NCBI GenBank assembly: GCA_027486525.1
Contig: JAIXOY010000112.1
Span: forward strand, 1-17,563
DNA from: Pseudomonadota bacterium
Lineage (GTDB): Bacteria; Bdellovibrionota; Bacteriovoracia; Bacteriovoracales; Bacteriovoracaceae
DNA length: 17,563 nucleotides
Direction of reading: 5' to 3'
The position numbers and the translations under genes are program-made. A model generated the notes under the pieces. The model was not told the origin of the DNA. It worked only from the letters and a program-made list of their open reading frames with translations, and did not search any database. This document shows positions 2,359 to 13,161 of the stretch, piece after piece; within the stretch, counting starts at the first letter, position 1, and each line of letters begins with the position of its first letter.

Positions 2359-3807
2359 CTATGGCAGGCAAACCAAGGGAGAATAGTCCCGAACGTGGCT
2401 CTCCATGCTCTCCCAATAACTGATGCCCGTGTCACGCGTATGACGGGCCAGGAGACCTTTCAGCATGGGGACTGTCTGCTCAATCCCGTACGCAATTTCC
2501 GTGGGAAAAGCCACCAGCCAACCTCGCCCTTCGATGGCGGTCTTCGGCATGGCGATGTCGAGACCAAGATCCAGGCGATTCACGAACGCCGCCACACTCT
2601 TCACCACCGTTGGCGCAAGCCTCACGGTGCCGATGGTCCAACCCCGATCACCGAACGTGCGGAAGTGCGGAAAATTATCGATCAAATCACCGAAGGTGAT
2701 CACGCCGGGATTGATGGTTTCGCCGGTAAAACCGGAGGCGTGAATCCCGACATCAGCGCCAGCACGATCGCGCAGCATGACGGCAAGGTGTTTCCCCCAG
2801 CAGCTGCGCTTCATCGCCGTGCGGCCGTCGACGTGGCCAGTGAGTGCGATCTGCGAGCGGCCAATCGGCTCATCCCAGGATCGACCGAAGTATGCTTCGC
2901 GGTCCTTCTTCGCTTGATCGACGATCACCTGAATTTTTGCGTTCACGGCCGTGGTCAGAGGAATCACATGCACCTGACTCGAAATCAGTTGATGCTTTTT
3001 CGTGACCGGATCGATGTCGACGATGACTTGACCCACCGCCATGGCATGGGCCCCGGCCTGCACCACTGGAATCCTCTGGCCTCTGCTATTTTTTGCGAGG
3101 ATCGGTTGGACTAGACGCTCGTGAGAATGAGCTCCCACCACAAGATCGATGCTGCGCGAGCGTTCCACGAGTTTCACATCCGTCTTGCTGCCAATGTGCG
3201 TGAGAACAATGAAGTAGTCCACCTTCGCATCTTTCGCCATCTGCTCGATGCGGCCGACTTCTCTCAGCGGATTCTTCACTTTCCCGGTATGGCGAATGGC
3301 GTACTGGTAGTGGAGCTCCGACGTCGTGAGGCCCGCGATGCCGATGCGCACTCCACCGATTGATTTCACCACCATGGATTTCACCAGACCGTGAGTCTCC
3401 GTGAGAAATTTATCATTCAGGTTGGCGGCCAGCACATCGGCTTTGATGTGGGCGCGCTTGAGTAGAGTGGCCAGTTCTTCGCCACCTTGCAAGAGATCGT
3501 GATTGCCGATGACCGTGACATCAACGCCGAGATCATCCAACAGCTTCAGCGCGGTGGCACCGTTCTCGGCGAAAAAGAATGAGGAACCTTCGCCGAAATC
3601 TCCCCCGTCGAGAAACAAGGTGGGAATGCCCTGCGTGGCCGCCTGCGCTTTCAGCCGATCGACCGTGGTCTTGAGTCGCGCGTAGCCGCCCTTTCCTTCG
3701 CCGCCTTCAAAATGGGAATGGAGATCATTGGAATGCAGGATCTGCACGCGAATCGCGTAGACCGGAAAAGCGACCAACAGCAGGCATGTGAGAAGGACCA
3801 AACGCAT
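2359..3807 (-). CDS. secreted bifunctional metallophosphatase / 5'-nucleotidase (UshA-like calcineurin-type phosphoesterase with C-terminal nucleotidase domain)
   Basis: 482 aa, ATG 3805-3807. N-terminal signal peptide MRLVLLTCLLLVAFPVYA. Metallophosphatase motifs ILHSNDLHSH, LDGGDF and VIGNHDLL. Length and C-terminal region fit the 5'-nucleotidase family. Confidence 0.88.
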   Translation of the reverse strand: MRLVLLTCLLLVAFPVYAIRVQILHSNDLHSHFEGGEGKGGYARLKTTVDRLKAQAATQGIPTLFLDGGDFGEGSSFFFAENGATALKLLDDLGVDVTVIGNHDLLQGGEELATLLKRAHIKADVLAANLNDKFLTETHGLVKSMVVKSIGGVRIGIAGLTTSELHYQYAIRHTGKVKNPLREVGRIEQMAKDAKVDYFIVLTHIGSKTDVKLVERSRSIDLVVGAHSHERLVQPILAKNSRGQRIPVVQAGAHAMAVGQVIVDIDPVTKKHQLISSQVHVIPLTTAVNAKIQVIVDQAKKDREAYFGRSWDEPIGRSQIALTGHVDGRTAMKRSCWGKHLAVMLRDRAGADVGIHASGFTGETINPGVITFGDLIDNFPHFRTFGDRGWTIGTVRLAPTVVKSVAAFVNRLDLGLDIAMPKTAIEGRGWLVAFPTEIAYGIEQTVPMLKGLLARHTRDTGISYWESMESHVRDYSPLVCLP

Positions 3808-3870: not shown

Positions 3871-4365
3871 TCAGGCCAAAAGTTGCTGGCACACATCCGC
3901 TAAGCTCGCAGGATCAAGCGGTTTATGGTTGGCGATGTTGATCTGGCGGCCCACAACAGTCATGCCAATGTAGGAAAACTGTAAGCGCATCATCACCAGG
4001 GCCTGCAAACCATCGCCCCCGGAGTGAGTGGCAATCGCCGCACGTTTTCCGTTGAAATGGACGCGCCAATCCTTGGCCGAAGTACTGCACCAAGCGATGA
4101 AGTTATTCAGCACCGGCGTAAGTCCCCCGTTGTACTCTGGAGAAACGAAGACGAAGCGATCAGCAGCGAGGGCCTCTTTGAAGGGTTCGATCGCCTGGGC
4201 GCCTGAGAGTTTGCCATGTTGCAAAGGTGAATAGAGGGGAAGATCGGCAGCGACGAGATCAAGCAAAGACACTCTGTGGCCGAGCGATTCGAGGTGCTCT
4301 TTGAAGGTCTGGGCCAACACGAGATTTTTTCCGTTACTACCGGCGACGACGCACACATGCTTCAT
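3871..4365 (-). CDS. NADPH-dependent FMN reductase family flavoprotein (flavodoxin-like fold NAD(P)H oxidoreductase)
   Basis: 164 aa, ATG 4363-4365 with an AGGAG Shine-Dalgarno (plus-strand ctcct 4372-4376) 6 nt upstream. N-terminal MKHVCVVAGSNGKN (flavodoxin-like phosphate-binding loop) and FVSPEYNGGLTPVLNNFIAW are typical of the SsuE/ArsH-like FMN-reductase family. Confidence 0.82.
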   Translation of the reverse strand: MKHVCVVAGSNGKNLVLAQTFKEHLESLGHRVSLLDLVAADLPLYSPLQHGKLSGAQAIEPFKEALAADRFVFVSPEYNGGLTPVLNNFIAWCSTSAKDWRVHFNGKRAAIATHSGGDGLQALVMMRLQFSYIGMTVVGRQINIANHKPLDPASLADVCQQLLA

Positions 4366-4552: not shown

Positions 4553-6580
4553 ATGGAGTTGGGTTCGGCCATGTTAATTGGCCTTTTGTTCATCGGTCTA
4601 TTGTTAGCCGTCTTTTTACTGACCCGTTTCTTAGTCAACGTGGGCTCCGACGAAATCGCCATCATGGAACGCCAATTCCTGGGCCAAGAGTTGGATGCCG
4701 GTAACGTTTTCGCCAAGGACGGACAGGTCGGCCTGCGTGCTGCCTTCTTATCCCCGGGCCTGCACTTCGTTTTGTGGCCCTTCACTCGCGTTGTCGACAA
4801 GCCACTCTTCCTCCAGATTGCGGCCGATGAGTTAGGTATCGTTGAAGCCACCGACGGAGCTGCTTTGCCCGCAGGACGAATCTTCGCCGATGATCCGGCC
4901 GGAGAAAGCCACAACAACTTCCAAGATCCGCTGGCGTTTTTGCAAGGTGGTGGCATCCGCGGAAAGCAACTGCGCTTCATCACCAACGGTACTTTTAAAG
5001 TTCACCCGCAGCTCTTCAAGGTCACCAAGATCAAGAAGACCTTCATTCCCCAAGGGAAGATCGGTGTCGTGACCGCAGCCGACGGGGCCTCACTGGAAGT
5101 GGGTCACCTGCTCGCGGTGAGCATTCCGGATCATGATAATTTCCAGAGCGCGGAGAAGTTCCTCAAGAACGGCGGCCAGAAGGGTCCGCAGATCGACTTC
5201 TTGCGCCCGGGTACCTACAACATCAACACCGAGATTTTTAAAGTGGAAGTCCGTGACGCTGTCATCATCACCGACAATGAAATCGGCATCGTCGATGCGC
5301 GTGACGGTCAACCCATGAAAACCGCAGAAGTCGTCGTGAGCACACCCGAGGGCCACAGCAATTTCCAAGACGGGCAGAAGTTTCTTGCGAACGGTGGGAA
5401 GCGCGGCCCGCAAGAAAGCATTCTGACTCCCGGTACCTACTACATCAATCCGTACCTCTTCTCCGTGGCGAAGCGGAAGCAGACGCAAGTGAACCAGGGT
5501 GAAGTCGCCGTCTTGATCTCGAACATCGGGAAAGATCCGGGCGAGTTCGTTCCGGAGAACGTCTCAGCGGCGGATAAGCTGGCCACACGCCACGTCGTAC
5601 CCAAGGGCTACCGCGGGATCCAGAACCAAGTGTTAGGTCCTGGCTCGTACAACATCAACCCCCTCGCCTACACGCCGATCATCATTCCGACCATCACGCG
5701 GTCAGTGGACTGGAGCGCCGGTGAAGGCAACAACAGCAGCTTCGATCCGTTCCAGGTGGTTTCCCACGATGGCTTCGAGATGCAAGTTGAGGTTCGCTGC
5801 CAGTATCGCATTCAGCCGGAGAACGCACCTTACGTTGTCCAGAAGATCAGCTCGATCGCCGAGCTCGAGAAGAACGTCATTCATCCGCAGATCGACGGTA
5901 TCTTTCGTGCCCAAGTGGCCCGCTCACCAGCGATTGCGTATCAGCAGAACCGCGCCGAAGAGCAGAAATCGGCCGAGGAAGCCGTTCGCGATGACTTGAC
6001 GAAATACCGCGTGGAAGTGGTCTCGGTCATGATCACCAACATCCATCTGCCGGAAGCGTTGATGAAAACCACGCAGCAAAAAAACTTGGCCGAGCAAGAG
6101 AAGTCGATGTTCGATGCGAAGAAAGATGCCGAGCAACGCCGGATCGAGTATGAAAAAACCAAAGCAGAAGCCGATTCGCAGTTGAGAATCATCACGGCGG
6201 AAGCGGGGATTAAGGTCGCACAACACGAATCACGGCAGATGGAAGAGCGCGCGAAAGGTGACTCGGCCCGGGTGCGGATGCTGGCCGAAGCGGATGCCAG
6301 CCGTACTAAACAGATGGGTGACGCTGAAGCCGGTGTGGTTCGGGCCATCGGGGAAGCGCAAGCCAAAGCCTACCGCGATCAAGTGGATGCCCTCACGGCG
6401 CAAGGTGTGACGACTGTTGAAGTCGTGAAAGCTATTTCAGCCGCCGGGCTTAAAATCACACCGGACATTCAGGTGGGTGGCAATGGGGGCGCAATGGACG
6501 GTGGTCTGGTGCAAGTTCTCCTTGGCAAGATGCTCATGGATAAACCAGCCGTCGTGCTTCCTCCACCGACAAATAGTTAG
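4553..6580 (+). CDS. flotillin / SPFH (band-7) family protein, YqiK-like, with an expanded N-terminal domain
   Basis: 675 aa. N-terminal TM helix (MLIGLLFIGLLLAVFLL). SPFH core (FEMQVEVRCQYRIQPENAPYVVQKI...VEVVSVMITNIHLPEAL). Long Ala/Glu/Gln/Lys-rich coiled-coil flotillin tail (AEQEKSMFDAKKDAEQRRIEYEKTKAEADSQLRIITAEAG...). Stop TAG 6578-6580. Confidence 0.85.
   Translation: MELGSAMLIGLLFIGLLLAVFLLTRFLVNVGSDEIAIMERQFLGQELDAGNVFAKDGQVGLRAAFLSPGLHFVLWPFTRVVDKPLFLQIAADELGIVEATDGAALPAGRIFADDPAGESHNNFQDPLAFLQGGGIRGKQLRFITNGTFKVHPQLFKVTKIKKTFIPQGKIGVVTAADGASLEVGHLLAVSIPDHDNFQSAEKFLKNGGQKGPQIDFLRPGTYNINTEIFKVEVRDAVIITDNEIGIVDARDGQPMKTAEVVVSTPEGHSNFQDGQKFLANGGKRGPQESILTPGTYYINPYLFSVAKRKQTQVNQGEVAVLISNIGKDPGEFVPENVSAADKLATRHVVPKGYRGIQNQVLGPGSYNINPLAYTPIIIPTITRSVDWSAGEGNNSSFDPFQVVSHDGFEMQVEVRCQYRIQPENAPYVVQKISSIAELEKNVIHPQIDGIFRAQVARSPAIAYQQNRAEEQKSAEEAVRDDLTKYRVEVVSVMITNIHLPEALMKTTQQKNLAEQEKSMFDAKKDAEQRRIEYEKTKAEADSQLRIITAEAGIKVAQHESRQMEERAKGDSARVRMLAEADASRTKQMGDAEAGVVRAIGEAQAKAYRDQVDALTAQGVTTVEVVKAISAAGLKITPDIQVGGNGGAMDGGLVQVLLGKMLMDKPAVVLPPPTNS
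4829..5707 (+). repeat. intragenic tandem amino-acid repeats (~75 aa x ~3.5) inside the flotillin gene
   Basis: Copies at about aa 93-175, 176-250, 251-325 and a partial copy at 326-385. They share the pattern DG..L..G....(10)H.NFQ....FL..GG..G.Q...L.PGTY.IN...F.V. Each resembles the genuine first SPFH segment at aa 40-90 (GGQK...INxNTxxxEV-like). Confidence 0.6.
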
Positions 6581-6622: not shown

Positions 6623-7234
6623 TTAAACTGTCTCAAGAAGTTGCAAGCCGCGAACGTATTTCGAGAAGCGACCCAAACGCCAAGGAAGGCAGCGGATGAA
6701 CTCGTCACCGAGCTTGGCCGCTTCGAGCTTATATTTTATCTCCAACACGGCGACGTAGTCGAAGTCCTGCCGCCAAAGATTTCTTCCGGCCGGGGAAAAT
6801 TCTATTCGTGTATCGAGTGTTACTCGTAAACCCCAAGCAGGTGCGTGGTAGTACCGGCGTTCATACCGATTTTCCAGCACGGGATACATGAGACATTCAC
6901 CCAATAAAACACCGTGGCCTTCGCGCAAAGAAGCAATCGCTGCAGCAGGATCGTAGAAGCGCTTGTCCCCATGATCCCCTAACTTTCGTTTCTCCTCGAG
7001 TTGCTTCCAGGCTCCCCCATCGTAGGAGCGCAGACGCCACTTCACGCGCGCCTCGTGGCCCGCGGTGTGGGCATGAAAACAGGCGAGATCCGGCGAATCA
7101 AAATACGCGTTATGCACTCGACGTGCTGGATACGCCGTCACAAGGCCCATGGGATGAGCGAGGAGAATGTTCTCAATCTGCTGGAGATCGCCAGATCCGA
7201 GAGGAATCTTCTTTTCGAAACGCCAGTCACTCAT
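6623..7234 (-). CDS. VTC domain protein (polyphosphate-polymerase-type CYTH-like domain, PF09359-like), cytoplasmic
   Basis: 203 aa from ATG 7232-7234; I reject the longer 7303 start. Motifs match what I recall of bacterial VTC-domain proteins: RFEKKIPL (R.E.K), YFDSPD, ARVKWRLRSY, LEEKRK, GLRVTLDTRIEF, LEIKYK, and C-terminal RFSKYVRGL. The start overlaps the stop of the upstream gene (ATGA at 7231-7234). Confidence 0.8.
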   Translation of the reverse strand: MSDWRFEKKIPLGSGDLQQIENILLAHPMGLVTAYPARRVHNAYFDSPDLACFHAHTAGHEARVKWRLRSYDGGAWKQLEEKRKLGDHGDKRFYDPAAAIASLREGHGVLLGECLMYPVLENRYERRYYHAPAWGLRVTLDTRIEFSPAGRNLWRQDFDYVAVLEIKYKLEAAKLGDEFIRCLPWRLGRFSKYVRGLQLLETV

Positions 7235-7887
7235 AGCGACCACCCTTCTGGCCAGTGGCCCCAGATGCGCCACTCGTTTGTCTTGGGATTCCAAACCGCC
7301 CACGCCGTCTCGTCGAGAGGGGGCAGTTCTTTTTCATGCATCTGCGCAAGTGCTACGAGCAGAGGCAACCGCCGCGACTGCCGAGACACCTCGATGCCAG
7401 CTGCACCTTTCCGTGCGAGCGGCCCTTCTCCATTTTGCAGAGTCAGAGTGAAGGGATGAGCAAACAGTGCGTAGTCTCCGACACTCTTCCCATTCACGAT
7501 CAGCGCACCCTGCGCGAGCGGTGCTGGCGAAGGGGTACGCAGCAGGACAGCGGCCTCTAGGCTTTGCGTATCAACGAGGATCATTTCTCGCTGTTCAAAG
7601 CCCTGGTCCTCATCAACCTCTATCGCAACCGCTTTAAGCCCGGGCTGGCCCTGCGTCGGAAGTGTGCGCATTAAGACCCGCAGGCGGTTCCCTGCAAACT
7701 CGAGTTCACCCTTCACCTCTTGACTGCGCCACTGAGAGTTTGTCCGAAGCTTGATATCGTCAAAGAGCAAACGCTGAAGCGAACGATGCCCTAGAGAAAG
7801 CGCGAATGAGGGAGCCGACTTTCCTATCAAGAAAATTCCCAACCCCATCAGCACAACACAAAAGACCGCAGCGAAGAAAAAGCGCAT
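7231..7887 (-). CDS. hypothetical membrane-anchored protein (N-terminal TM/signal anchor, extracytoplasmic domain), unknown function
   Basis: 218 aa, ATG 7885-7887. MRFFFAAVFCVVLMGLGIFLIG is the hydrophobic anchor. No motif I recognise. The start overlaps the DUF4956 stop (TGATG) and the stop overlaps the VTC start (ATGA). Confidence 0.6.
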   Translation of the reverse strand: MRFFFAAVFCVVLMGLGIFLIGKSAPSFALSLGHRSLQRLLFDDIKLRTNSQWRSQEVKGELEFAGNRLRVLMRTLPTQGQPGLKAVAIEVDEDQGFEQREMILVDTQSLEAAVLLRTPSPAPLAQGALIVNGKSVGDYALFAHPFTLTLQNGEGPLARKGAAGIEVSRQSRRLPLLVALAQMHEKELPPLDETAWAVWNPKTNEWRIWGHWPEGWSL

Positions 7888-8555
7888 CAGGCCAAGTCTT
7901 GATATTCGGTGATGAGCATTTGAACTCCCGGCAACTTCTCTTTGAGTCCTTGGCGCATCTTCTCGAGATTTTCTGTCGAGGAGGTTTCTACCAAGAAGAC
8001 AGCTTCCCCCTCGGAGATGCGTTTGATTTTTACCCGCCGGGAATGGGTCGCAAGAACGGCCTCAAGTTCCGGCACGGAGAACTGAGCGAGCTTACTCAGA
8101 TGAACGTAGAGAGCTCCGGGACGACTTGCCCCGCCGCCACGCACTTTGAGGAGCGCATACACAAGAAGAATCACCACAAGACCGATGACGGTCACGGGCC
8201 GCTGATCGGCGCCCAGACCAAGGCCCACGGCGATGGAGAGAAACAGGAATGAAAGTTCTTCGGGGTCTTTGATCGCCGTTCGGAAACGGACGACGGAGAG
8301 CGCACCGACGAGACCCAGGGAAAGGGCGAGGGAGGACTTCACCACACTAATGACGAGCATGGTGGTCATGGTCAGAAGAAAAAAGTTTCCGGCGAAGAGT
8401 GTGCGATGAGACTGGCCTCGGCCCCAGCGGGAATAGAGCAGCGCCATCAGCCCGGCCAGCACGCCAGCGGTTCCCAAGTTGAGGACAAACTGCCCGACAT
8501 CGATCTGCGGGGCCTGGTTGGCGAGAAAATCTTCAAACGTGTTAACAGCACTCAT
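7887..8555 (-). CDS. DUF4956 domain-containing integral membrane protein
   Basis: 222 aa, ATG 8553-8555 with a GAGGAG Shine-Dalgarno 6 nt upstream. Contains the DUF4956 hallmark LSLGLVGALSVVRFRTAIKDPEELSFLFLSIAVGLGLG and several TM segments. Confidence 0.8.
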   Translation of the reverse strand: MSAVNTFEDFLANQAPQIDVGQFVLNLGTAGVLAGLMALLYSRWGRGQSHRTLFAGNFFLLTMTTMLVISVVKSSLALSLGLVGALSVVRFRTAIKDPEELSFLFLSIAVGLGLGADQRPVTVIGLVVILLVYALLKVRGGGASRPGALYVHLSKLAQFSVPELEAVLATHSRRVKIKRISEGEAVFLVETSSTENLEKMRQGLKEKLPGVQMLITEYQDLA

Positions 8556-8561
8556 GGATCA

Positions 8562-8567
8562 CTCCTC
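8562..8567 (-). promoter_or_regulatory. Shine-Dalgarno GAGGAG for the DUF4956 gene
   Basis: Plus-strand ctcctc, 6 nt upstream of ATG 8553-8555 on the minus strand. The only junction in the cluster with a spacer (24 nt) also has the strongest SD. Confidence 0.55.
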
Positions 8568-8579
8568 GTGATTGATAAA

Positions 8580-9470
8580 TCATGGCAAACGTAACCACTC
8601 CGCGGCGATCCAAAACAGACGCGCCCCTAAGAGAGTAAAAATAACGGATTTGAACTGGGGTGTGGCATTCGTGAAAGGGGCCTTCGACCACCGCACGCAC
8701 TGAATGAGGCCCCAGAAAAACAGGAAAGAGAAGATCACATAGAGGATCGCGGGCCCGTTGGAAAAGCGATCGAGTTGGTTTTCGTTCCACAGAATAGTCG
8801 CCACTCCTACGTAACCCCAAAAGAGCATGAGCGCGCCCACTCGGAGGGCATGAGTGGCACCCAGGAGACTCGAAAAATTTCGCGCCGTCGCATAAGTGTC
8901 ATGGGGCTTCAGCTGAAAGATCTGCGTGGCGGCATAGCTCCCGCCGACGGTGAGCGTAAACAGCCAGCCCATCATCCAAGTGCGCGCACTGGGCTCGAAG
9001 CCTGAGATGGTAGCCCCGAGGATGACTCCGATCACCCCACAGCCAGTCGCATCTAAGAAAAGATCGACGCCGCCAACTTCTTTACCGCGCCACTTGAGTC
9101 CGGGGACGCGGCCTGAATACGCATACGAGAAAAGCAAGGCGACAACCGCGCAGCCGAGGGGATAGGTGCCATAGAACGCCGCCGCCACACATCCCAGCAG
9201 CATGCAAGCAACACCGAAGTGGCCCAGCCACTTCGGACGCGGCGGGGGATTGTCTAAGAAGTTCAAGGGACCGGCATCGCGGTCGACGTGCGTATTGAGC
9301 GCGCAGGTGCCACCGAAGAGAAGAACGCTATAGATCAAGAAGAGCGCCAGCAGATCCGTCGGCCAGGCCGCTTTATTCGGATTGAGCGCATAGCCCGTTA
9401 ACACAAACACAAAGCTCGGGAGAAATGTCTTTGGACGCATGTGAATGAAATAAAATTTCAAATCTTTCAT
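8580..9470 (-). CDS. polytopic membrane protein, divergent UbiA-prenyltransferase-like
   Basis: 296 aa, ATG 9468-9470 overlapping the upstream stop (ATGA). 8-9 predicted TM segments. N-terminal HMRPKTFLPSFVFVLTGY (UbiA-like RP..T start), NTHVDRDAG in the first loop (degenerate NDxxDxxxD), and a later HDTYATARNFSSLLG (degenerate second motif). Family assignment is tentative; the catalytic Asp motifs look eroded. Confidence 0.5.
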   Translation of the reverse strand: MKDLKFYFIHMRPKTFLPSFVFVLTGYALNPNKAAWPTDLLALFLIYSVLLFGGTCALNTHVDRDAGPLNFLDNPPPRPKWLGHFGVACMLLGCVAAAFYGTYPLGCAVVALLFSYAYSGRVPGLKWRGKEVGGVDLFLDATGCGVIGVILGATISGFEPSARTWMMGWLFTLTVGGSYAATQIFQLKPHDTYATARNFSSLLGATHALRVGALMLFWGYVGVATILWNENQLDRFSNGPAILYVIFSFLFFWGLIQCVRWSKAPFTNATPQFKSVIFTLLGARLFWIAAEWLRLP

Positions 9471-10354
9471 CGTTTATCCTTCAAGAAATACTGGCGAGCA
9501 CGAAAGAATTTTGATTCCTGGCCAACCTTCATACCACGCTCACTCACCAACAACGACTCGAGTTTATTCAGAAGCAACGTTCCCATCTCGCGCGGGCGGT
9601 ACTTGTTTTCGATTTCCAGCTCTTTGATGAGGAATTCTTCTTTGCCACCACTGGCTTGAATGAAACGGGCCTCATCCCACGAACCTTCCATCAGCCAAAC
9701 CCATGATGGATTTTTACGAAATACGGCAGGCACCATCAGTTCGTTCTTCTCTGAGTCTCTCAGGAGCAAGAGCGGAGAAACGCGTTCGTTACGATCAATC
9801 AGAATGTGGTAGCGCTGACGATGAGAATAGCCAAGAACGACAGGCCCTAGGCCTTTGGTTTTTAACTGACGACGACGCAATTCTTGGAACGGAGCGAGGC
9901 TCGAACTTTCTTTGCGTGTGAGCCACTGGGAAAGAAGGGCACCATCGGCGGCACTCACTCCTCTCTGAGCGACGTACCTCTCAATGATGTCGACGATGCG
10001 CACACCTGCCACACTCTGCTCTTTGAGGTTGCGTTCCTCTTCTTCGATCCGTGCAGCTCCCGGTGCTTCCATCTCCGATTTAAGCTGGATGACATAGGCC
10101 GGTGGCTGGTTCCCTTTGCGCACTCTTCGGATGCGTAATCCGAGTCCGGCCTGAGTCAGAACACCTTCAGGAGAATCGAAGTAGAGGTCTTCGGCGAGGT
10201 AAACATCGTGAGGCCAAAAACGAAAATCCCCCAAGAGAAAAGTTTCCTGAGGCAGAGGCTGATCCGCGGGGACCACATACTTACGTTGCTCTTCTACCCG
10301 ATTGGTAGCCGCCAGCACATTGAAACTCAGGAGGAGAAGAAGGATTCTTACCAT
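9467..10354 (-). CDS. secreted VTC/CYTH-like domain protein (signal peptide + divergent polyphosphate-polymerase-type tunnel domain)
   Basis: 295 aa from ATG 10352-10354; I reject the longer 10387 start, which would overlap the upstream gene by 40 nt. Signal peptide MVRILLLLLSFNVLAA/TN. Then RVEEQRKYVV, LYFDSPEG, GLGLRIRRV and YVIQLKSE parallel the RFEKK / YFDSPD / WRLRSY / LEEKRK of the VTC protein at 6623-7234. C-terminal SKFFRARQYF parallels RFSKYVRG. Confidence 0.6.
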   Translation of the reverse strand: MVRILLLLLSFNVLAATNRVEEQRKYVVPADQPLPQETFLLGDFRFWPHDVYLAEDLYFDSPEGVLTQAGLGLRIRRVRKGNQPPAYVIQLKSEMEAPGAARIEEEERNLKEQSVAGVRIVDIIERYVAQRGVSAADGALLSQWLTRKESSSLAPFQELRRRQLKTKGLGPVVLGYSHRQRYHILIDRNERVSPLLLLRDSEKNELMVPAVFRKNPSWVWLMEGSWDEARFIQASGGKEEFLIKELEIENKYRPREMGTLLLNKLESLLVSERGMKVGQESKFFRARQYFLKDKR

Positions 10355-11856
10355 CCGTACCCCCGGAACCGGCCACGCGTGTGCCACAGTCCTGCGGGAT
10401 AGAGTGTGAGATCCGGCTCGCGCACGAGCTCTCCGTTCTTCACGACGTCACCGATGTTGAGTTGGCGATTAATCTGCCACGTGTGAGGGTCTGAAACCTG
10501 AAAGGCTCTGAGAATTTGTCGACGACGCTCGGCGAGTTTGTGGAAATACAGTTCGCGCACTTCTGCGGGCCATCCGGAGTGCGAGAGAATTTCTCGCAGA
10601 TCATCCGGACCTAAACGAGCAATCTGCTTGGCCATCCACGCAAGATCGCTCCACGTCGCCTGGCGCCAGGCTTCCGGGAGATGGTTCATGCGAGCGAGGA
10701 AACGAAGCTCTTTTCCATCGTCCTCTACCAGATCCCAACCCAACTCATTCACCAGGCCACCCTTGAGGTCGCGCGGGAACTTCTCAATGCGAACTCCCAG
10801 CGAAACACCCAAGTCACTATAACTGGCCTTCATACCTTCAGCTGTGAGAGTGAGCAACGTGTTGTCGGTCTTCGTGTCCCAGTTGCCGATCCACATCTCC
10901 GCAAGGAGAGCTCCGCGCACAGAACGCCTCGATTTATTTTGTGCGAGGTCCGGCATGAAAGGCCCGAGGCGCGTCTCGGAACTCGGCCTTGGCTCCAACG
11001 CGAGTCCTGTGAAGGTGAGATAGGTCTCTCCCTCCCTTCCACGCAGCAAGGGCTCAATGGCAATCATCTCATCCGTCACGGTGCTGACCTGCTGGATGAA
11101 GGGACTCAGATTTATTTTGTAGCTGTTGTAGATAAAATTCACGAGCTGCTGAACGGTGCGCTTCTGCTTAGCTTGGCGACCCAACAGCAAACGGAGCTCG
11201 CCGGTTCCGCGATGAAAAGGAAAATCCACGTTAAAACCGAGAGAGGCAAAGATCCTCGAGGCCACGGGGTCACTATGAATCTCATCACCCCACTTGATCA
11301 GCCACCGTTCGCCATTACGAAGATCATCGGCGTGAACCTTCGCGACACTGCCCTTGCCTTCTAACTTATCAAGTCGCAGCCAAGAAAAGTCCGGATCCAC
11401 GCCAGCTGCTTTCCACTGGCGCTCAAAGGCCTCAGACAACGGAGCAACTGGGCTTTTCCAAAACGCATCGCTCTCGGCAGGCCGGCCATCATCAGGTGCG
11501 CGATTGAACTTTAAAAGATACGGAGAAAGATCGTGGGTCAACCCCATCTTGAGAATGTCGAGCAGGCCCACGCCGGCTTCCACACGATGGCGATCAATGA
11601 AGGAGTGGTAGATCAGATCGAGATTGTCCCACGCCACGGGATTGGGAAAATTGCCAGCATCGAAGGCCCGTTCTTGTTGCTCGCAGGTATCGCGAACAAA
11701 CGAGAGCATCACTGGTTTGCGCTCTTGCGTGAGCTTGCGACCTTCGGCTTCCTTCACATCCGTGTTCGTGAGCACTTCACAACGTGACCGCGATTCTTCC
11801 AGCGTGAGCGCTTGGGCGCTCAAGCTGAGAAAGAATAATGGCCACAGTCGCTTCAT
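10348..11856 (-). CDS. secreted protein with protein-kinase-like (PKL/Hanks-like) catalytic core; not CotH-like
   Basis: 502 aa, ATG 11854-11856. Signal peptide MKRLWPLFFLSLSAQA. Gly-rich loop LEGKGSVAKV (aa ~165-175), Lys in WLIKW (K188), catalytic loop WIGNWDTKTDNTLL (D327-x-K329-x-x-N332, the HRDLKPEN spacing), and DLG at 348-350. The kinase core maps to about nt 10800-11370. Confidence 0.65.
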   Translation of the reverse strand: MKRLWPLFFLSLSAQALTLEESRSRCEVLTNTDVKEAEGRKLTQERKPVMLSFVRDTCEQQERAFDAGNFPNPVAWDNLDLIYHSFIDRHRVEAGVGLLDILKMGLTHDLSPYLLKFNRAPDDGRPAESDAFWKSPVAPLSEAFERQWKAAGVDPDFSWLRLDKLEGKGSVAKVHADDLRNGERWLIKWGDEIHSDPVASRIFASLGFNVDFPFHRGTGELRLLLGRQAKQKRTVQQLVNFIYNSYKINLSPFIQQVSTVTDEMIAIEPLLRGREGETYLTFTGLALEPRPSSETRLGPFMPDLAQNKSRRSVRGALLAEMWIGNWDTKTDNTLLTLTAEGMKASYSDLGVSLGVRIEKFPRDLKGGLVNELGWDLVEDDGKELRFLARMNHLPEAWRQATWSDLAWMAKQIARLGPDDLREILSHSGWPAEVRELYFHKLAERRRQILRAFQVSDPHTWQINRQLNIGDVVKNGELVREPDLTLYPAGLWHTRGRFRGYGW

Positions 11857-12365
11857 TACGCACGGGCCCCACGGTAGTCCATGATCTCGCGGTTACCGAT
11901 GTAGCTGTACCCGATGAAGATCAGCACGAAGGCCGCATGGATGGGCCACCCGAGTTCTGCGAAACCATCGTACTGACGAAAGAAGCCCCAGGCGAAGGTC
12001 ACCGCCGTACCACCGTGGATGCAAATCCACATGATCATGTGAATGATGGTTTCTCTTTCCGTGCACCGTGGAAGGTGCCAGTGGATCTCGTCCATGAATT
12101 CGTGGAGGGTCCGTGTGACCCAGCAGCCCAAGAAGAGAAACAATGCTTGTCCAGGCCACCAGGTCATCAGCAAGAGTGAGAGCATCAGTCCGTAGCTGGT
12201 GTAAAGAATCATCCGGTGAGTGCGCAGCTCTCCGTCCGTGATGTCCTTTTTCCAAATCGCTAGATGCGTTTTGTGATCGAGGTACCAGAAGATGCCGAAG
12301 AAGAATCCGAAGAAGAGCATCCCGTAAGCGAAATGCTGTGGAGGAATTGCATCAAGCCATGACAT
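11856..12365 (-). CDS. hypothetical polytopic membrane protein with conserved His clusters
   Basis: 169 aa, ATG 12363-12365 overlapping the upstream UbiA gene by 14 nt. Stop TAA overlaps the next start (TAATG). ~5 TM segments with His motifs LDHKTH, LHEFMDEIHWH and IIHMIMWICIHGG. No family I can name. Confidence 0.55.
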   Translation of the reverse strand: MSWLDAIPPQHFAYGMLFFGFFFGIFWYLDHKTHLAIWKKDITDGELRTHRMILYTSYGLMLSLLLMTWWPGQALFLFLGCWVTRTLHEFMDEIHWHLPRCTERETIIHMIMWICIHGGTAVTFAWGFFRQYDGFAELGWPIHAAFVLIFIGYSYIGNREIMDYRGARA

Positions 12366-13161
12366 AAAACACCATCCTCGAGATAAAGATTAGCCCGCAC
12401 GTTGCGAGATTCATGTATTGAGTTGCGTAGTGGCCCGGCTCGCCCCAGCGAAGCCATTCGAGGTTCGCGGCACGCCAGACGAGAACCGCGATCCACGCGG
12501 TTCCCCACGGCACGGGGCAAAGAAGCAAAAGCAGACCGCTCAGGAGATTCAGCGTGTGAAGAAGAGCGTAGGTCGTGCGCTCACCGAACACGAGCGGCAG
12601 CGTGCGAGTCCCGCTCAACCGATCCTCTTCGAGATCATCCAAATCCCGCAGGACACTTCCGGCCATCACCTGCAGCGCCACGAAGCCTGCGACGATGTTG
12701 ATGTAGGGAGATGAGGTGTCGCCGGCACCCAAGTAGACGAGCATCGCCCAGCCCACACCGATCCAGGCACTCTTAATTCCCGTCAGAGATTTAAGACGAA
12801 AAGTTCCCGTCGCCGTGGCGAAGGGATAGGAGTAGGACAAACCTAAAAAGAGAATCGTCAGCGAACACACAAGCGTCAGCGGGCCCGGACGCAACAGGGA
12901 GAGAACGAGGCCCGAAATGAGAAGGGGGAGGAGCTTGAGTCCGGCGCGTGACTTCAGGGCATCCCACGGATGTTGCTCATCGGTGAGTGAGTCCATGCCA
13001 TAGACAAAACCCACCAGAGAAAAAGTGATCCACACCACCGACCAACTGGCGGCGAGCTCAACGCTCACGAGACTAAATCCCGTCAGCACGATGGCCACGG
13101 CCGCGGCCACGAGGATCCAGATGGACTTACGTCTCCAGAGGAGAAAATGTGATGCGAGCAT
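12352..13161 (-). CDS. UbiA superfamily prenyltransferase (MenA-like aromatic prenyltransferase fold)
   Basis: 269 aa, first gene of the minus-strand cluster. The strong second Asp-rich motif RDLDDLEEDRLSGTRTLPLVFG matches the MenA/UbiA NDxxDxxxD...G.KTL.V..G signature. 8-9 TM segments. Confidence 0.75.
   Translation of the reverse strand: MLASHFLLWRRKSIWILVAAAVAIVLTGFSLVSVELAASWSVVWITFSLVGFVYGMDSLTDEQHPWDALKSRAGLKLLPLLISGLVLSLLRPGPLTLVCSLTILFLGLSYSYPFATATGTFRLKSLTGIKSAWIGVGWAMLVYLGAGDTSSPYINIVAGFVALQVMAGSVLRDLDDLEEDRLSGTRTLPLVFGERTTYALLHTLNLLSGLLLLLCPVPWGTAWIAVLVWRAANLEWLRWGEPGHYATQYMNLATCGLIFISRMVFYVMA

Follow-up and report, generated by a model that had tools for sequence, protein, structure and literature searches.

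A predicted Sec-exported CYTH-type triphosphate tunnel protein encoded with an exported kinase-like partner in a Bdellovibrionota operon

Organization of the locus

The window (the whole stretch of DNA that was analyzed, 17,563 nucleotides) contains an operon on the minus strand in which a 295-aa ORF at 9467–10354, with its ATG at 10354 and its stop at 9467–9469, encodes the protein studied here, hereafter the CYTH protein. The genes, and the features of the CYTH protein, are as follows.

12352..13161, minus strand: UbiA-family prenyltransferase 1 (UbiA1), 269 aa, first gene of the operon; Pfam UbiA 47.8 bits
11856..12365, minus strand: p169, small His-rich integral membrane protein, 169 aa, containing HEFMDEIHWH
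10348..11856, minus strand: p502, exported atypical kinase-like protein, 502 aa, obligate partner of the CYTH protein
10307..10354, minus strand: predicted Sec-type signal peptide of the CYTH protein, residues 1–16, MVRILLLLLSFNVLAA, probably cleaved at VLA/A or LAA/T
9467..10306, minus strand: mature CYTH-type triphosphate-tunnel domain, residues 17–295 plus stop
10280..10294, minus strand: first-strand motif E21-E22-Q23-R24-K25 (E-x-Q-x-K) of the CYTH protein
9602..9622, minus strand: C-terminal acidic strand E245-L-E247-I-E249-N-K251 of the CYTH protein, probably metal-site ligands, mapped by motif
8580..9470, minus strand: UbiA-like membrane protein 2, 296 aa; Pfam UbiA 27.6 bits, below cutoff
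7887..8555, minus strand: DUF4956 membrane protein, 222 aa, with three hydrophobic segments; Pfam DUF4956 55 bits
7231..7887, minus strand: p218, 218 aa, with an N-terminal membrane anchor and outside any known family, between the DUF4956 and VTC genes
6623..7237, minus strand: cytoplasmic VTC-domain (Vtc4-like) protein; Pfam VTC 67 bits

The CYTH start codon lies within the string ATGGTAA, which also holds the stop codon of the upstream p502 gene, and the ATG of UbiA-like protein 2 overlaps the CYTH stop codon (ATGA). Translation of the CYTH gene opens with MVRILLLLLSFNVLAA followed by TNRVEEQRKY, and the motifs that had been quoted for this product in a sequence-only reading were all found in it: RVEEQRKY at residues 19–26, YFDSP at 58–62, LRIRRV at 73–78, IQLKSE at 89–94 and FFRARQYF at 283–290. 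Among the neighbors, UbiA1 gave weak NCBIfam matches to archaeal-type prenyltransferases, while no NCBIfam model was matched by the CYTH protein, p502, p169, p218, the DUF4956 protein or the VTC protein. p169, which also lacked a Pfam match and whose homologs are likewise without a Pfam domain, shows the strongest conservation in the cluster, with 58–85% identity where the CYTH protein shows 37–57%. p218 was found at 32–35% identity in four closer Bdellovibrionota loci (L005, L006, L008 and L009). Alignment of homologs of the VTC protein, in which R-x-E-x-K, RxR and SKY are invariant, places its true start probably at the ATG at 7237 (MSDWRFEKKI), giving a protein of 204 aa, and neither a signal peptide nor a transmembrane segment was detected in it. 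A scan of the operon for promoters and terminators returned nothing beyond shuffled controls.

The CYTH protein has a triphosphate tunnel fold

The CYTH protein scored 23.0 bits against Pfam CYTH (PF01928), 0.2 bits short of the gathering cutoff of 23.2, and 29 of 32 relatives matched the same model (E<=0.01, best 8.9e-7). Searches against the PDB gave 0 matches with the sequence and a single match, at E 1.3, with the family profile; since neither was usable, structure prediction was required. The resulting AlphaFold2 model (pLDDT 91.4) has the strand order of triphosphate tunnel metalloenzymes (TTMs), with an eight-stranded antiparallel tunnel and a C-terminal plug helix (282–292). When this model was compared with the PDB using Foldseek, 33 TTM chains were recovered at probability 1.00 (E 2e-8 to 1e-3), headed by ygiF, AtTTM3, PH1819, CyaB-like proteins and ThTPase, with no Vtc4 among the matches at E<=1e-3. 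Pfam, the fold search and the retained acidic patch described below thus identify the 9467–10354 product as a CYTH-type TTM. Its best structural matches are the CYTH inorganic triphosphatases ygiF, AtTTM3, PH1819 and SaTTM, with which it shares the motif order E-x-?-x-K, YFDxP, RxR, K, RxE, RxR, ExExE and SK plug helix and whose acidic patch it largely keeps. Sequence similarity to these enzymes is marginal, as the profile search indicates, and there are several differences. The triphosphatases are cytosolic and begin at the ExExK strand, whereas the window protein has a signal peptide in front of this strand; it has Gln in place of the second Glu, a metal-2 ligand; it bears approximately 90–100 residues beyond minimal CYTH proteins in conserved helical insertions (approximately 120–161 and 188–216); and it has an obligate kinase-like partner, where the triphosphatases have a CHAD domain or no partner.

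The sequence-only reading had taken the CYTH protein for an exported paralog of the operon's VTC protein. The TTM fold and the YFDSP, RxR and SKY-type motifs are indeed common to the CYTH protein, to Vtc4p (PF09359) and to the VTC protein of the window, but these belong to the triphosphate-tunnel superfamily at large and are not VTC-specific. BLASTP between the two window proteins gave E=0.19 with YFDSP alone aligned, hhalign of the CYTH family against the family of the operon's VTC protein gave a probability of 0.74%, and Pfam VTC (PF09359) scored 16 bits on the CYTH protein against a cutoff of 23, matching 4 of 32 relatives (best E 1.5e-3). Vtc4p has, in place of the acidic patch of the hydrolase TTMs, basic residues which guide the growing chain (PMC4641920), whereas the corresponding residues of the CYTH protein, in a mapping made partly by motif, are E21, E104 and E249, all kept and invariant. 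In addition, the VTC catalytic domain sits on the cytoplasmic side, with access to ATP, while the CYTH protein is predicted to be exported, as is its family. The proposed VTC paralogy was rejected on the combined basis of BLASTP, hhalign, Pfam VTC, fold matches and acidic patch. What stands of the earlier picture of two VTC paralogs on opposite sides of the membrane is that a tunnel protein with a signal peptide and a cytoplasmic VTC-domain protein share one operon.

Export signal of the CYTH protein

Export was assessed by rule-based signal-peptide analysis together with conservation across the family, the Sec/SPI rules being a positively charged n-region, a hydrophobic core of 7–15 residues, small residues at -3 and -1, and no further transmembrane segment. 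The CYTH protein has MVR as n-region, ILLLLLSFNVL as core and VLA/A or LAA/T as cleavage site, and a 19-residue hydrophobicity window revealed no transmembrane helix. In the AlphaFold model residues 2–15 form a detached helix, and the linker after it has pLDDT <50. The same pattern recurs across the family, with K/R at positions 3–5, then 13–18 uncharged residues and small residues at -3/-1, the signal peptides stopping 2–5 residues ahead of the first strand. The rules were passed by 53 of 61 full-length representatives; members failing them resemble truncated gene calls, and in two members a lipobox replaces the signal peptide. The CYTH protein is accordingly predicted to be exported behind a Sec signal, and the signal peptide which the sequence-only reading had called on this product was recovered as a rule-based pattern conserved family-wide. 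It is highly improbable that the N-terminus instead forms an uncleaved anchor which tethers an unexported CYTH domain to the cytoplasmic side of the inner membrane, as the 13–18-residue hydrophobic core offers no 19-residue transmembrane window, the N-terminal positive charge favors an N-in/C-out orientation, and both the small -3/-1 residues found throughout the family and the lipobox variants count against an anchor, as do the signal-peptidase site (AQA) and conserved Cys pair of the partner p502.

Tunnel residues and the E-to-Q change

Tunnel-facing side chains were inferred from strand periodicity and motif alignment, and roles were given to them after PMC4641920. Across 44 diverse sequences with 25–40% identity to the window CYTH protein, E21, R74, R76, K92, E94, R102, E104, R179, R181, E223, E247, E249 and K251 were invariant. 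R74/R76/K92/R102 were aligned by hhalign with AtTTM3 R52/R54/K76/R87, and motif mapping suggests that the strand carrying E247/E249 is equivalent to that of AtTTM3 E167/E169/E171. The tunnel Arg/Lys residues and the late E-x-E-strand Glu residues typical of the superfamily are therefore kept. The canonical E-x-E-x-K of strand 1 is altered: its first Glu and its Lys are present, and the second Glu is Gln. This E-x-Q-x-K motif occurs in 60 of 61 full-length representatives and its Q23 is invariant in alignment A1; the Crocinitomix homolog reads EHQLK, and the sole E-x-E-x-K member among the 61 reads ESERKF. By this mapping the CYTH protein would keep the metal-site-1 glutamates and two of the three metal-site-2 ligands, the third being the family-invariant Gln.

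In ygiF the counterpart of Q23 is Glu-6, which binds metal 2, and Ala or Asp at this Glu cripples both ygiF and AtTTM3 (PMC4641920). The CYTH protein, with E-to-Q at a site where substitution cripples its relatives, may accordingly not hydrolyze at all. It could be a non-catalytic module with a disabled metal site 2, the tunnel of which only binds tri-/polyphosphate or a phosphorylated ligand, serving the kinase-like partner as a subunit for specificity or regulation, a role to which the near-invariance of Q23 and obligate pairing with a protein retaining full catalytic motifs would be suited. We nevertheless consider it quite unlikely, as the remaining metal and phosphate ligands are invariant at 25–40% identity, beyond the usual needs of binding, metal coordination is still possible for Gln, and the existence of one canonical ESERKF member suggests that the Gln and Glu states are functionally close.

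The kinase-like partner p502

The constant partner of the CYTH protein, on which the sequence-only reading had not remarked, is an exported kinase-like protein, p502. It has a predicted signal peptide, MKRLWPLFFLSLSAQA, which has the AQA site and is followed by Leu, the conserved Cys pair is formed by Cys26 and Cys58, and further motifs are GKGSxxK, KWGDE, WDTKxDN, DLG and, at the C-terminus, GRFRGYGW. In the 35 pairs examined, the stop of the p502 gene overlaps the CYTH start in every case (35/35). The p502 motifs GxGSxxK, D..N and DxG are invariant. p502 has the elements of a kinase fold, being bilobal with a Gly-rich loop, a Lys, a catalytic D-x-x-x-x-N and a metal-binding D-x-G. No Pfam family was matched at E<=0.1, CotH (PF08757) included, and its relation to CotH is one of structural neighborhood only. 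Fold, Gly-rich loop, Lys, D..N and DxG are shared with Fam20C/Fam20B, H. pylori CtkA, actin-fragmin kinase, PI4KII-alpha and HipA, and p502 resembles Fam20 in having a signal peptide. Unlike these atypical kinases, p502 has no sequence-level family membership, and it has in addition an N-terminal helical domain bearing the disulfide-type Cys pair and an invariant GRFRxYG tail. To our knowledge none of these kinases has a TTM partner.

The closest structural neighbor of p502 is CtkA, titled a proinflammatory kinase in its PDB entry and reportedly secreted. Together with the signal peptides on both proteins, the presence of CyaB-type cyclases among the fold matches of the CYTH protein, the concentration of the family in predatory Bdellovibrionota, and the occurrence of a member in a Crocinitomix, this would fit a secreted effector pair, delivered into prey or host cells that provide NTPs, in which the CYTH protein would serve as a triphosphatase or a nucleotide cyclase of the class IV type alongside the kinase-like protein. 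Such a role appears improbable. UbiA and p169, integral enzymes of the inner membrane, are encoded in these operons together with MMPL exporters and small outer-membrane-like proteins, a composition which points to the cell's own envelope; lipobox variants would remain membrane-tethered; and nearby secretion-system genes are absent.

Family range and gene context

A cutoff of E<=1e-30 retrieves 88 of 1.84 billion representatives, marking the CYTH family as small and sharply bounded; although rare, it occurs in two phyla. Its three hallmarks are the signal peptide (or lipobox), the E-x-Q-x-K strand and an upstream gene overlapping the CYTH start. UbiA1 and p169 occur near the CYTH/p502 pair in both branches of the family, p169 in most loci, and an MMPL/HpnN-like exporter, an FAD enzyme and a small outer-membrane-protein-like ORF also recur near the pair. 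In four flank-rich second-branch loci no UbiA1 or p169 was found within reach, so even this lipid link is not universal. UbiA-like protein 2 is kept downstream of the CYTH gene only in Bdellovibrionota loci. VTC and DUF4956 genes lie beside the pair only in Bdellovibrionota, forming one overlapping operon with it in the window and in those Bdellovibrionota loci which extend far enough, and neither was present within the available flanks (<=10 kb) of the 25 loci of the larger, second branch, mostly non-Bdellovibrionota. For most family members no VTC gene was found nearby, and the VTC/DUF4956 association is lineage-specific. A comparable set is found in Gram-positive bacteria, for example beside pel loci, where DUF4956 adjoins genes for VTC ("polyphosphate polymerase") and CotH. 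The window differs from this set in that p502 fails Pfam CotH and in the addition of a second, exported CYTH-type TTM tied to the kinase, two UbiA-family proteins and p169.

These arrangements bear on the possibility that the CYTH protein is an exported paralog of the operon's VTC polymerase, binding or processing polyphosphate that is synthesized and moved across the membrane by VTC and DUF4956. The yeast VTC complex makes polyphosphate in the cytosol and translocates it across a membrane (PMC4641920), VTC and DUF4956 belong to the same overlapping operon, an arrangement kept in the Bdellovibrionota loci long enough to cover that region, and the Gram-positive set of CotH (an exported-type kinase), VTC and DUF4956 parallels that with p502. 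The unsupported paralogy, the lack of Vtc4 among the fold matches, the acidic patch and the 0 of 25 second-branch loci with VTC or DUF4956 all count against this, and taken together they make it unlikely, although it keeps some weight. Processing of exported polyphosphate by the CYTH protein is possible within the Bdellovibrionota lineage and would leave the family as a whole unexplained.

Proposed function

Neither a functional study nor an account of an exported CYTH protein turned up in the literature searched. As far as we know, all characterized triphosphate tunnel enzymes are cytosolic or nuclear and act where NTPs or polyphosphate originate. The pair described here, which would normally need ATP-like substrates, carries export signals and so appears to work outside the cytoplasm. 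The best explanation, to which we attach a probability of roughly 0.55, is that the Sec-exported CYTH-type tunnel protein is the extracytoplasmic phosphoanhydride-handling partner of the exported kinase-like protein. It would be stoichiometric with p502, whose gene lies directly upstream and is translationally coupled to its own, and the two may form a complex. Its basic tunnel residues would grip a tri-/polyphosphate moiety, the substrate being inorganic tri-/polyphosphate or a pyrophosphate-/triphosphate-linked lipid or nucleotide, and with altered metal chemistry it would cleave the phosphoanhydride or transfer from it, thereby supplying, recycling or removing a phosphoryl donor or by-product of p502. 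The pair would serve an envelope pathway around the UbiA prenyltransferase and the His-rich membrane protein, and in the Bdellovibrionota version the module would be joined to VTC-DUF4956, a unit through which polyphosphate may cross the inner membrane.

It counts against this explanation that the periplasm has no known phosphoryl donor. As a speculative extension of the preferred reading, with a small chance of being right, the pair may constitute an extracytoplasmic phosphoryl-transfer machine, the donor of which is not cytoplasmic ATP but either a lipid-linked pyro-/triphosphate produced by UbiA/p169 or, in Bdellovibrionota, polyphosphate or triphosphate that VTC-DUF4956 threads out. The Gln-for-Glu change would then suppress attack by water, such that the tunnel, rather than hydrolyzing the phosphoanhydride, passes phosphate to the substrate of the kinase, for example an envelope isoprenoid lipid.

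In this family a whole rare group of TTMs is predicted to be exported, has a changed catalytic metal ligand and is genetically locked to an exported kinase-like enzyme with intact catalytic motifs. This poses a testable question, namely which phosphoryl or energy donor serves kinase-type chemistry outside the bacterial cytoplasm, and it offers a way into both the unexplained CotH-VTC-DUF4956 sets and the question of what VTC-domain proteins do in bacteria. The family has a cultured carrier, Crocinitomix algicola strain 0182 (L017), which is usable for genetics.

Domain assignment and family

The genes listed here are all on the minus strand of the window.

9467-10354, minus: CYTH protein, 295 aa, with signal peptide and CYTH-type domain (ATG at 10354, stop at 9467-9469)
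10348-11856, minus: p502, the exported 502-aa kinase-like partner, directly upstream
11856-12365, minus: p169, a His-rich membrane protein of 169 aa
12352-13161, minus: UbiA1, a UbiA prenyltransferase
6623-7237, minus: VTC-domain protein

Comparison of the CYTH protein with Pfam gave 23.0 bits for CYTH (cutoff 23.2) and 16 bits for VTC (cutoff 23), and in a set of 32 family members 29 matched CYTH (best E 8.9e-7) and four matched VTC (best E 1.5e-3). An AlphaFold2 model generated from the family alignment was confident (pLDDT 91.4, pTM 0.84), and a Foldseek comparison with the PDB returned E. coli ygiF, Arabidopsis AtTTM3, Pyrococcus PH1819, CyaB-like proteins, SaTTM and thiamine triphosphatases at E values of 2e-8 to 1e-3, a range in which no Vtc4 chain was present. 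On these results the protein is a CYTH-type triphosphate tunnel (TTM) domain, with helical insertions of about 90-100 extra residues (roughly 120-161 and 188-216). The closest known enzymes are the ygiF/AtTTM3-type tripolyphosphatases.

The sequence-only reading described this product as an exported paralog of the VTC protein, and the N-terminus and every motif that it quoted are present in the translation. The 6623-7237 product is a real VTC-domain protein (Pfam VTC 67 bits). BLASTP between the two window proteins gave E 0.19 with YFDSP alone aligned, and hhalign of the 32-sequence CYTH-family alignment against a 10-sequence VTC-family alignment gave a probability of 0.74%; on these values paralogy is rejected, and the sub-cutoff Pfam VTC score likewise lends it no support. 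The motifs concerned (first-strand x-E-x-K, YFDxP, RxR, K-x-E and SK[YF]) are features of the TTM superfamily, and no relationship beyond fold was detectable between the two proteins by sequence comparison. The observation was real and its interpretation partly right, in that two TTM-superfamily proteins, predicted to lie on opposite sides of the membrane, are encoded in one operon.

When 1.84 billion representatives were searched exhaustively with HMMER, 134 proteins passed E<=1e-3 and 88 of them E<=1e-30, with only weak partial matches (E 1e-6 to 1e-3) outside the family and its fragments; as judged from this search, the exported CYTH family is small and discrete. The members with a named source come from Bacteriovoracaceae, Halobacteriovoraceae, Bdellovibrio, other Bdellovibrionota MAGs and the cultured Bacteroidota Crocinitomix algicola. 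Branch 1 (about 295-300 aa) contains the window protein, and branch 2 (about 310-320 aa) has signal peptides typically ending in Gln, which we infer to be a Bacteroidota trait. Some Bdellovibrionota genomes have a second pair of kinase-like and CYTH genes, belonging to the 320-aa branch and lying a few kb away from the main cluster (locus L008, 10297-11966; locus L009, 19068-20860, minus strand).

Conservation of tunnel residues

Across 44 sequences, only 25-40% identical to the window protein, residues E21, D56, Y58, R74, R76, Q90, K92, E94, R102, E104, R179, R181, E223, S225, D227, E247, E249 and K251 were invariant, and Q23, K25, H49, E245, S281 and K282 were at least 90% conserved. In an hhalign alignment to AtTTM3, with residue numbers matching those in PMC4641920, R74/R76 correspond to R52/R54, K92 to K76 and R102 to R87. 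Motif mapping equates E21-x-Q23-x-K25 with AtTTM3 E2-x-E4-x-K6 and ygiF E4-x-E6-x-K8, and E247/E249 with AtTTM3 E169/E171 and ygiF E160/E162. In ygiF, metal 1 is liganded by Glu-160 and triphosphate and metal 2, which places the attacking water, by Glu-4, Glu-6 and Glu-162; activity is strongly lowered in ygiF E6A and AtTTM3 E4A/D, and in the polymerase Vtc4p basic residues replace the acidic patch (PMC4641920). The exported CYTH protein is predicted to retain metal site 1 and the residues that bind phosphate; of the three metal-2 ligands it would keep two, with Gln as the third. With this combination it looks like a hydrolase-type TTM changed at the water-activating metal and not a Vtc4-type polymerase. 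The Gln at the metal-2 position could also suggest a purely binding, non-catalytic tunnel module, but the ligand set is otherwise complete, which argues against such a role.

E-x-Q-x-K is a family hallmark, present in 60 of 61 full-length representatives, and the distant Crocinitomix homolog has EHQLK at this first-strand motif. The sole member with the canonical E-x-E-x-K (ESERKF) is P0149, from the HMMER search, a natural 'revertant' that would be of use in comparative biochemistry.

Export signal

Export was judged by rules for n-region charge, uncharged core, small residues and a hydrophobicity window. The presequence consists of a positive n-region (MVR), a 15-residue uncharged core and a cleavage motif (VLA/A or LAA/T) 4-5 residues ahead of the first strand; in the AlphaFold2 model it is a detached helix, and the linker after it has a pLDDT below 50. 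This pattern, with unrelated sequences, recurs in nearly all full-length relatives (53 of 61 representatives), and the representatives failing the rules seem to be truncated gene calls. In two members there is a lipobox (AIGC, VAAC) and then a long linker. As the residue numbers of AtTTM3 and ygiF indicate, cytosolic TTMs have the ExExK strand at their very start, whereas the CYTH protein has a signal peptide prepended; no TM helix was found in it with a 19-residue hydrophobicity window. An uncleaved anchor carrying a cytoplasmic CYTH domain is unlikely, charge, length and lipobox all being contrary to it. Export of the CYTH protein is well supported but not proven.

Kinase-like partner and operon structure

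Wherever upstream sequence is available, a p502 homolog is encoded immediately upstream of CYTH, and in all 35 pairs examined its stop overlaps the start of the CYTH gene. p502 has a signal peptide (AQA/L) and a conserved Cys pair, gave no match to Pfam and yielded a confident model (pLDDT 86). Invariant in 27 diverse p502 sequences are a Gly-rich loop and Lys (G169, S170, K173), KWGxE, a catalytic loop (W326, D327, N332), D348-x-G350 and a C-terminal GR..G tail. These features identify the constant CYTH partner as an exported enzyme, probably an active atypical kinase. The tail, G-R-[FMKL]-R-[GN]-[YF]-G-x, forms the very C-terminus (last 8 codons, 10351-10374, minus strand), has low model confidence and persists even in the Bacteroidota, which have a different overlap with the CYTH start; it might serve for docking or as a peptide inserted into the tunnel.

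The CYTH ATG is embedded in ATGGTAA, which also contains the upstream stop codon. A GTG at 10387 is a possible alternative start that would add 11 residues; in the family alignment homologs begin at the ATG, with a near-invariant Met-Val. The CYTH stop and the downstream start share ATGA. Eight minus-strand genes run in series over 6623-13161, overlapping or nearly abutting, and from 13161 to 6623 their junctions are overlaps of 14 nt, 1 nt, 7 nt (ATGGTAA) and 4 nt (ATGA), a 24-nt gap, and overlaps of 1 nt and 7 nt; a single translationally coupled operon is therefore indicated. A promoter and terminator scan of the operon gave no signal exceeding shuffled controls. For the VTC gene the mechanical ORF (6623-7303, minus strand) opens at GTG 7303, and homolog alignment sets the start at ATG 7237 (MSDWRFEKKI), overlapping the end of the gene for a 218-aa protein by 7 nt.

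Neighbouring genes and proposed role

In both branches, most loci have UbiA1 and p169 genes near the pair, arranged in several different ways. p169 is the best-conserved product of the cluster (58-85% identity where CYTH has 37-57%) and has clustered His/Asp/Glu residues (DHKTH, HEFMDEIHWH, IIHM, IHGG). It is in no known family, an annotated domain being absent from thirty homologs, and may be a membrane metalloenzyme. Only in the Bdellovibrionota cluster is the pair followed by genes for a second UbiA-like protein, DUF4956, VTC and the 218-aa anchored protein; in the 25 loci of the other branch, none was found within the flanking sequence available (at most 10 kb). Neighbours recurring in both branches and absent from the window are an MMPL/sterol-sensing-type exporter and an FAD enzyme matching Trp_halogenase, both beside the module. 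The intervals for these and for the genes named after the list are as follows.

L001: 3715-5115 and 9772-12033
L026: 5840-7930 and 9271-13784
L030: 357-6365

Two loci have KS, ACP, KR and saccharopine-dehydrogenase-like genes beside the module; KS, ACP and KR are not in the window. These neighbours hint at a specialised pathway, for an envelope lipid or of polyketide-isoprenoid type. Also absent from the window, an ORF of about 200 aa with a signal peptide and a WR[LV]EVEP... motif adjoins the kinase-like gene in many branch-2 loci (L019, L021, L023-L027, L030, L032-L034 and L036; e.g. L033 7695-8342); it gave no match to Pfam and from its sequence is read as a putative outer-membrane beta-barrel.

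An exported CYTH tunnel, with its phosphate set intact and its metal set mostly intact, is genetically locked to an exported kinase-like enzyme, and the pair sits inside a membrane and envelope gene cluster. The two proteins would act jointly outside the cytoplasm, probably as a complex, the tunnel holding a phosphoanhydride substrate (the weakest step of the proposal) that would be hydrolysed, or serve as donor for transfer, by modified metal-2 chemistry. The pathway would be that of an isoprenoid-type envelope lipid, with the UbiA and p169 enzymes making the lipid and MMPL-type exporters, in loci that have them, moving it. By analogy with yeast VTC (PMC4641920), the attached VTC-DUF4956 unit of the Bdellovibrionota lineage might bring polyphosphate across the membrane, and the proposal of the sequence-only reading that the CYTH protein processes exported polyphosphate fits only this branch. 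A pair of secreted effectors with prey cells as their site of action would suit predators, but neither the membrane-enzyme operon nor the lipobox variants fit it. The closest gene-set analogy is the uncharacterised set of CotH, VTC and DUF4956 by Gram-positive pel loci and in Clostridium perfringens loci. No description of an exported CYTH protein or of a CYTH/kinase-like pairing was found in the literature searched. The family is a CYTH subfamily of exported E-x-Q-x-K proteins in obligate pairing with a putative exported atypical kinase, and its interest lies in which substrate such enzymes use outside the cytoplasm.

Beyond the VTC end of the operon, and convergent with the VTC gene, 4553-6580 (plus strand) encodes an SPFH/Band-7 protein of 675 aa, the N-terminal part of which has a membrane anchor and a long repetitive region; it has no evident link to the cluster. 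The window also encodes an FMN reductase (3871-4365, minus strand) and a calcineurin-like phosphoesterase (2359-3807, minus strand), the latter with a hydrophobic segment at its N-terminus; in L005, L008 and L009 the FMN reductase gene is near the VTC end of the cluster, and in L001 a Metallophos gene is near the cluster.
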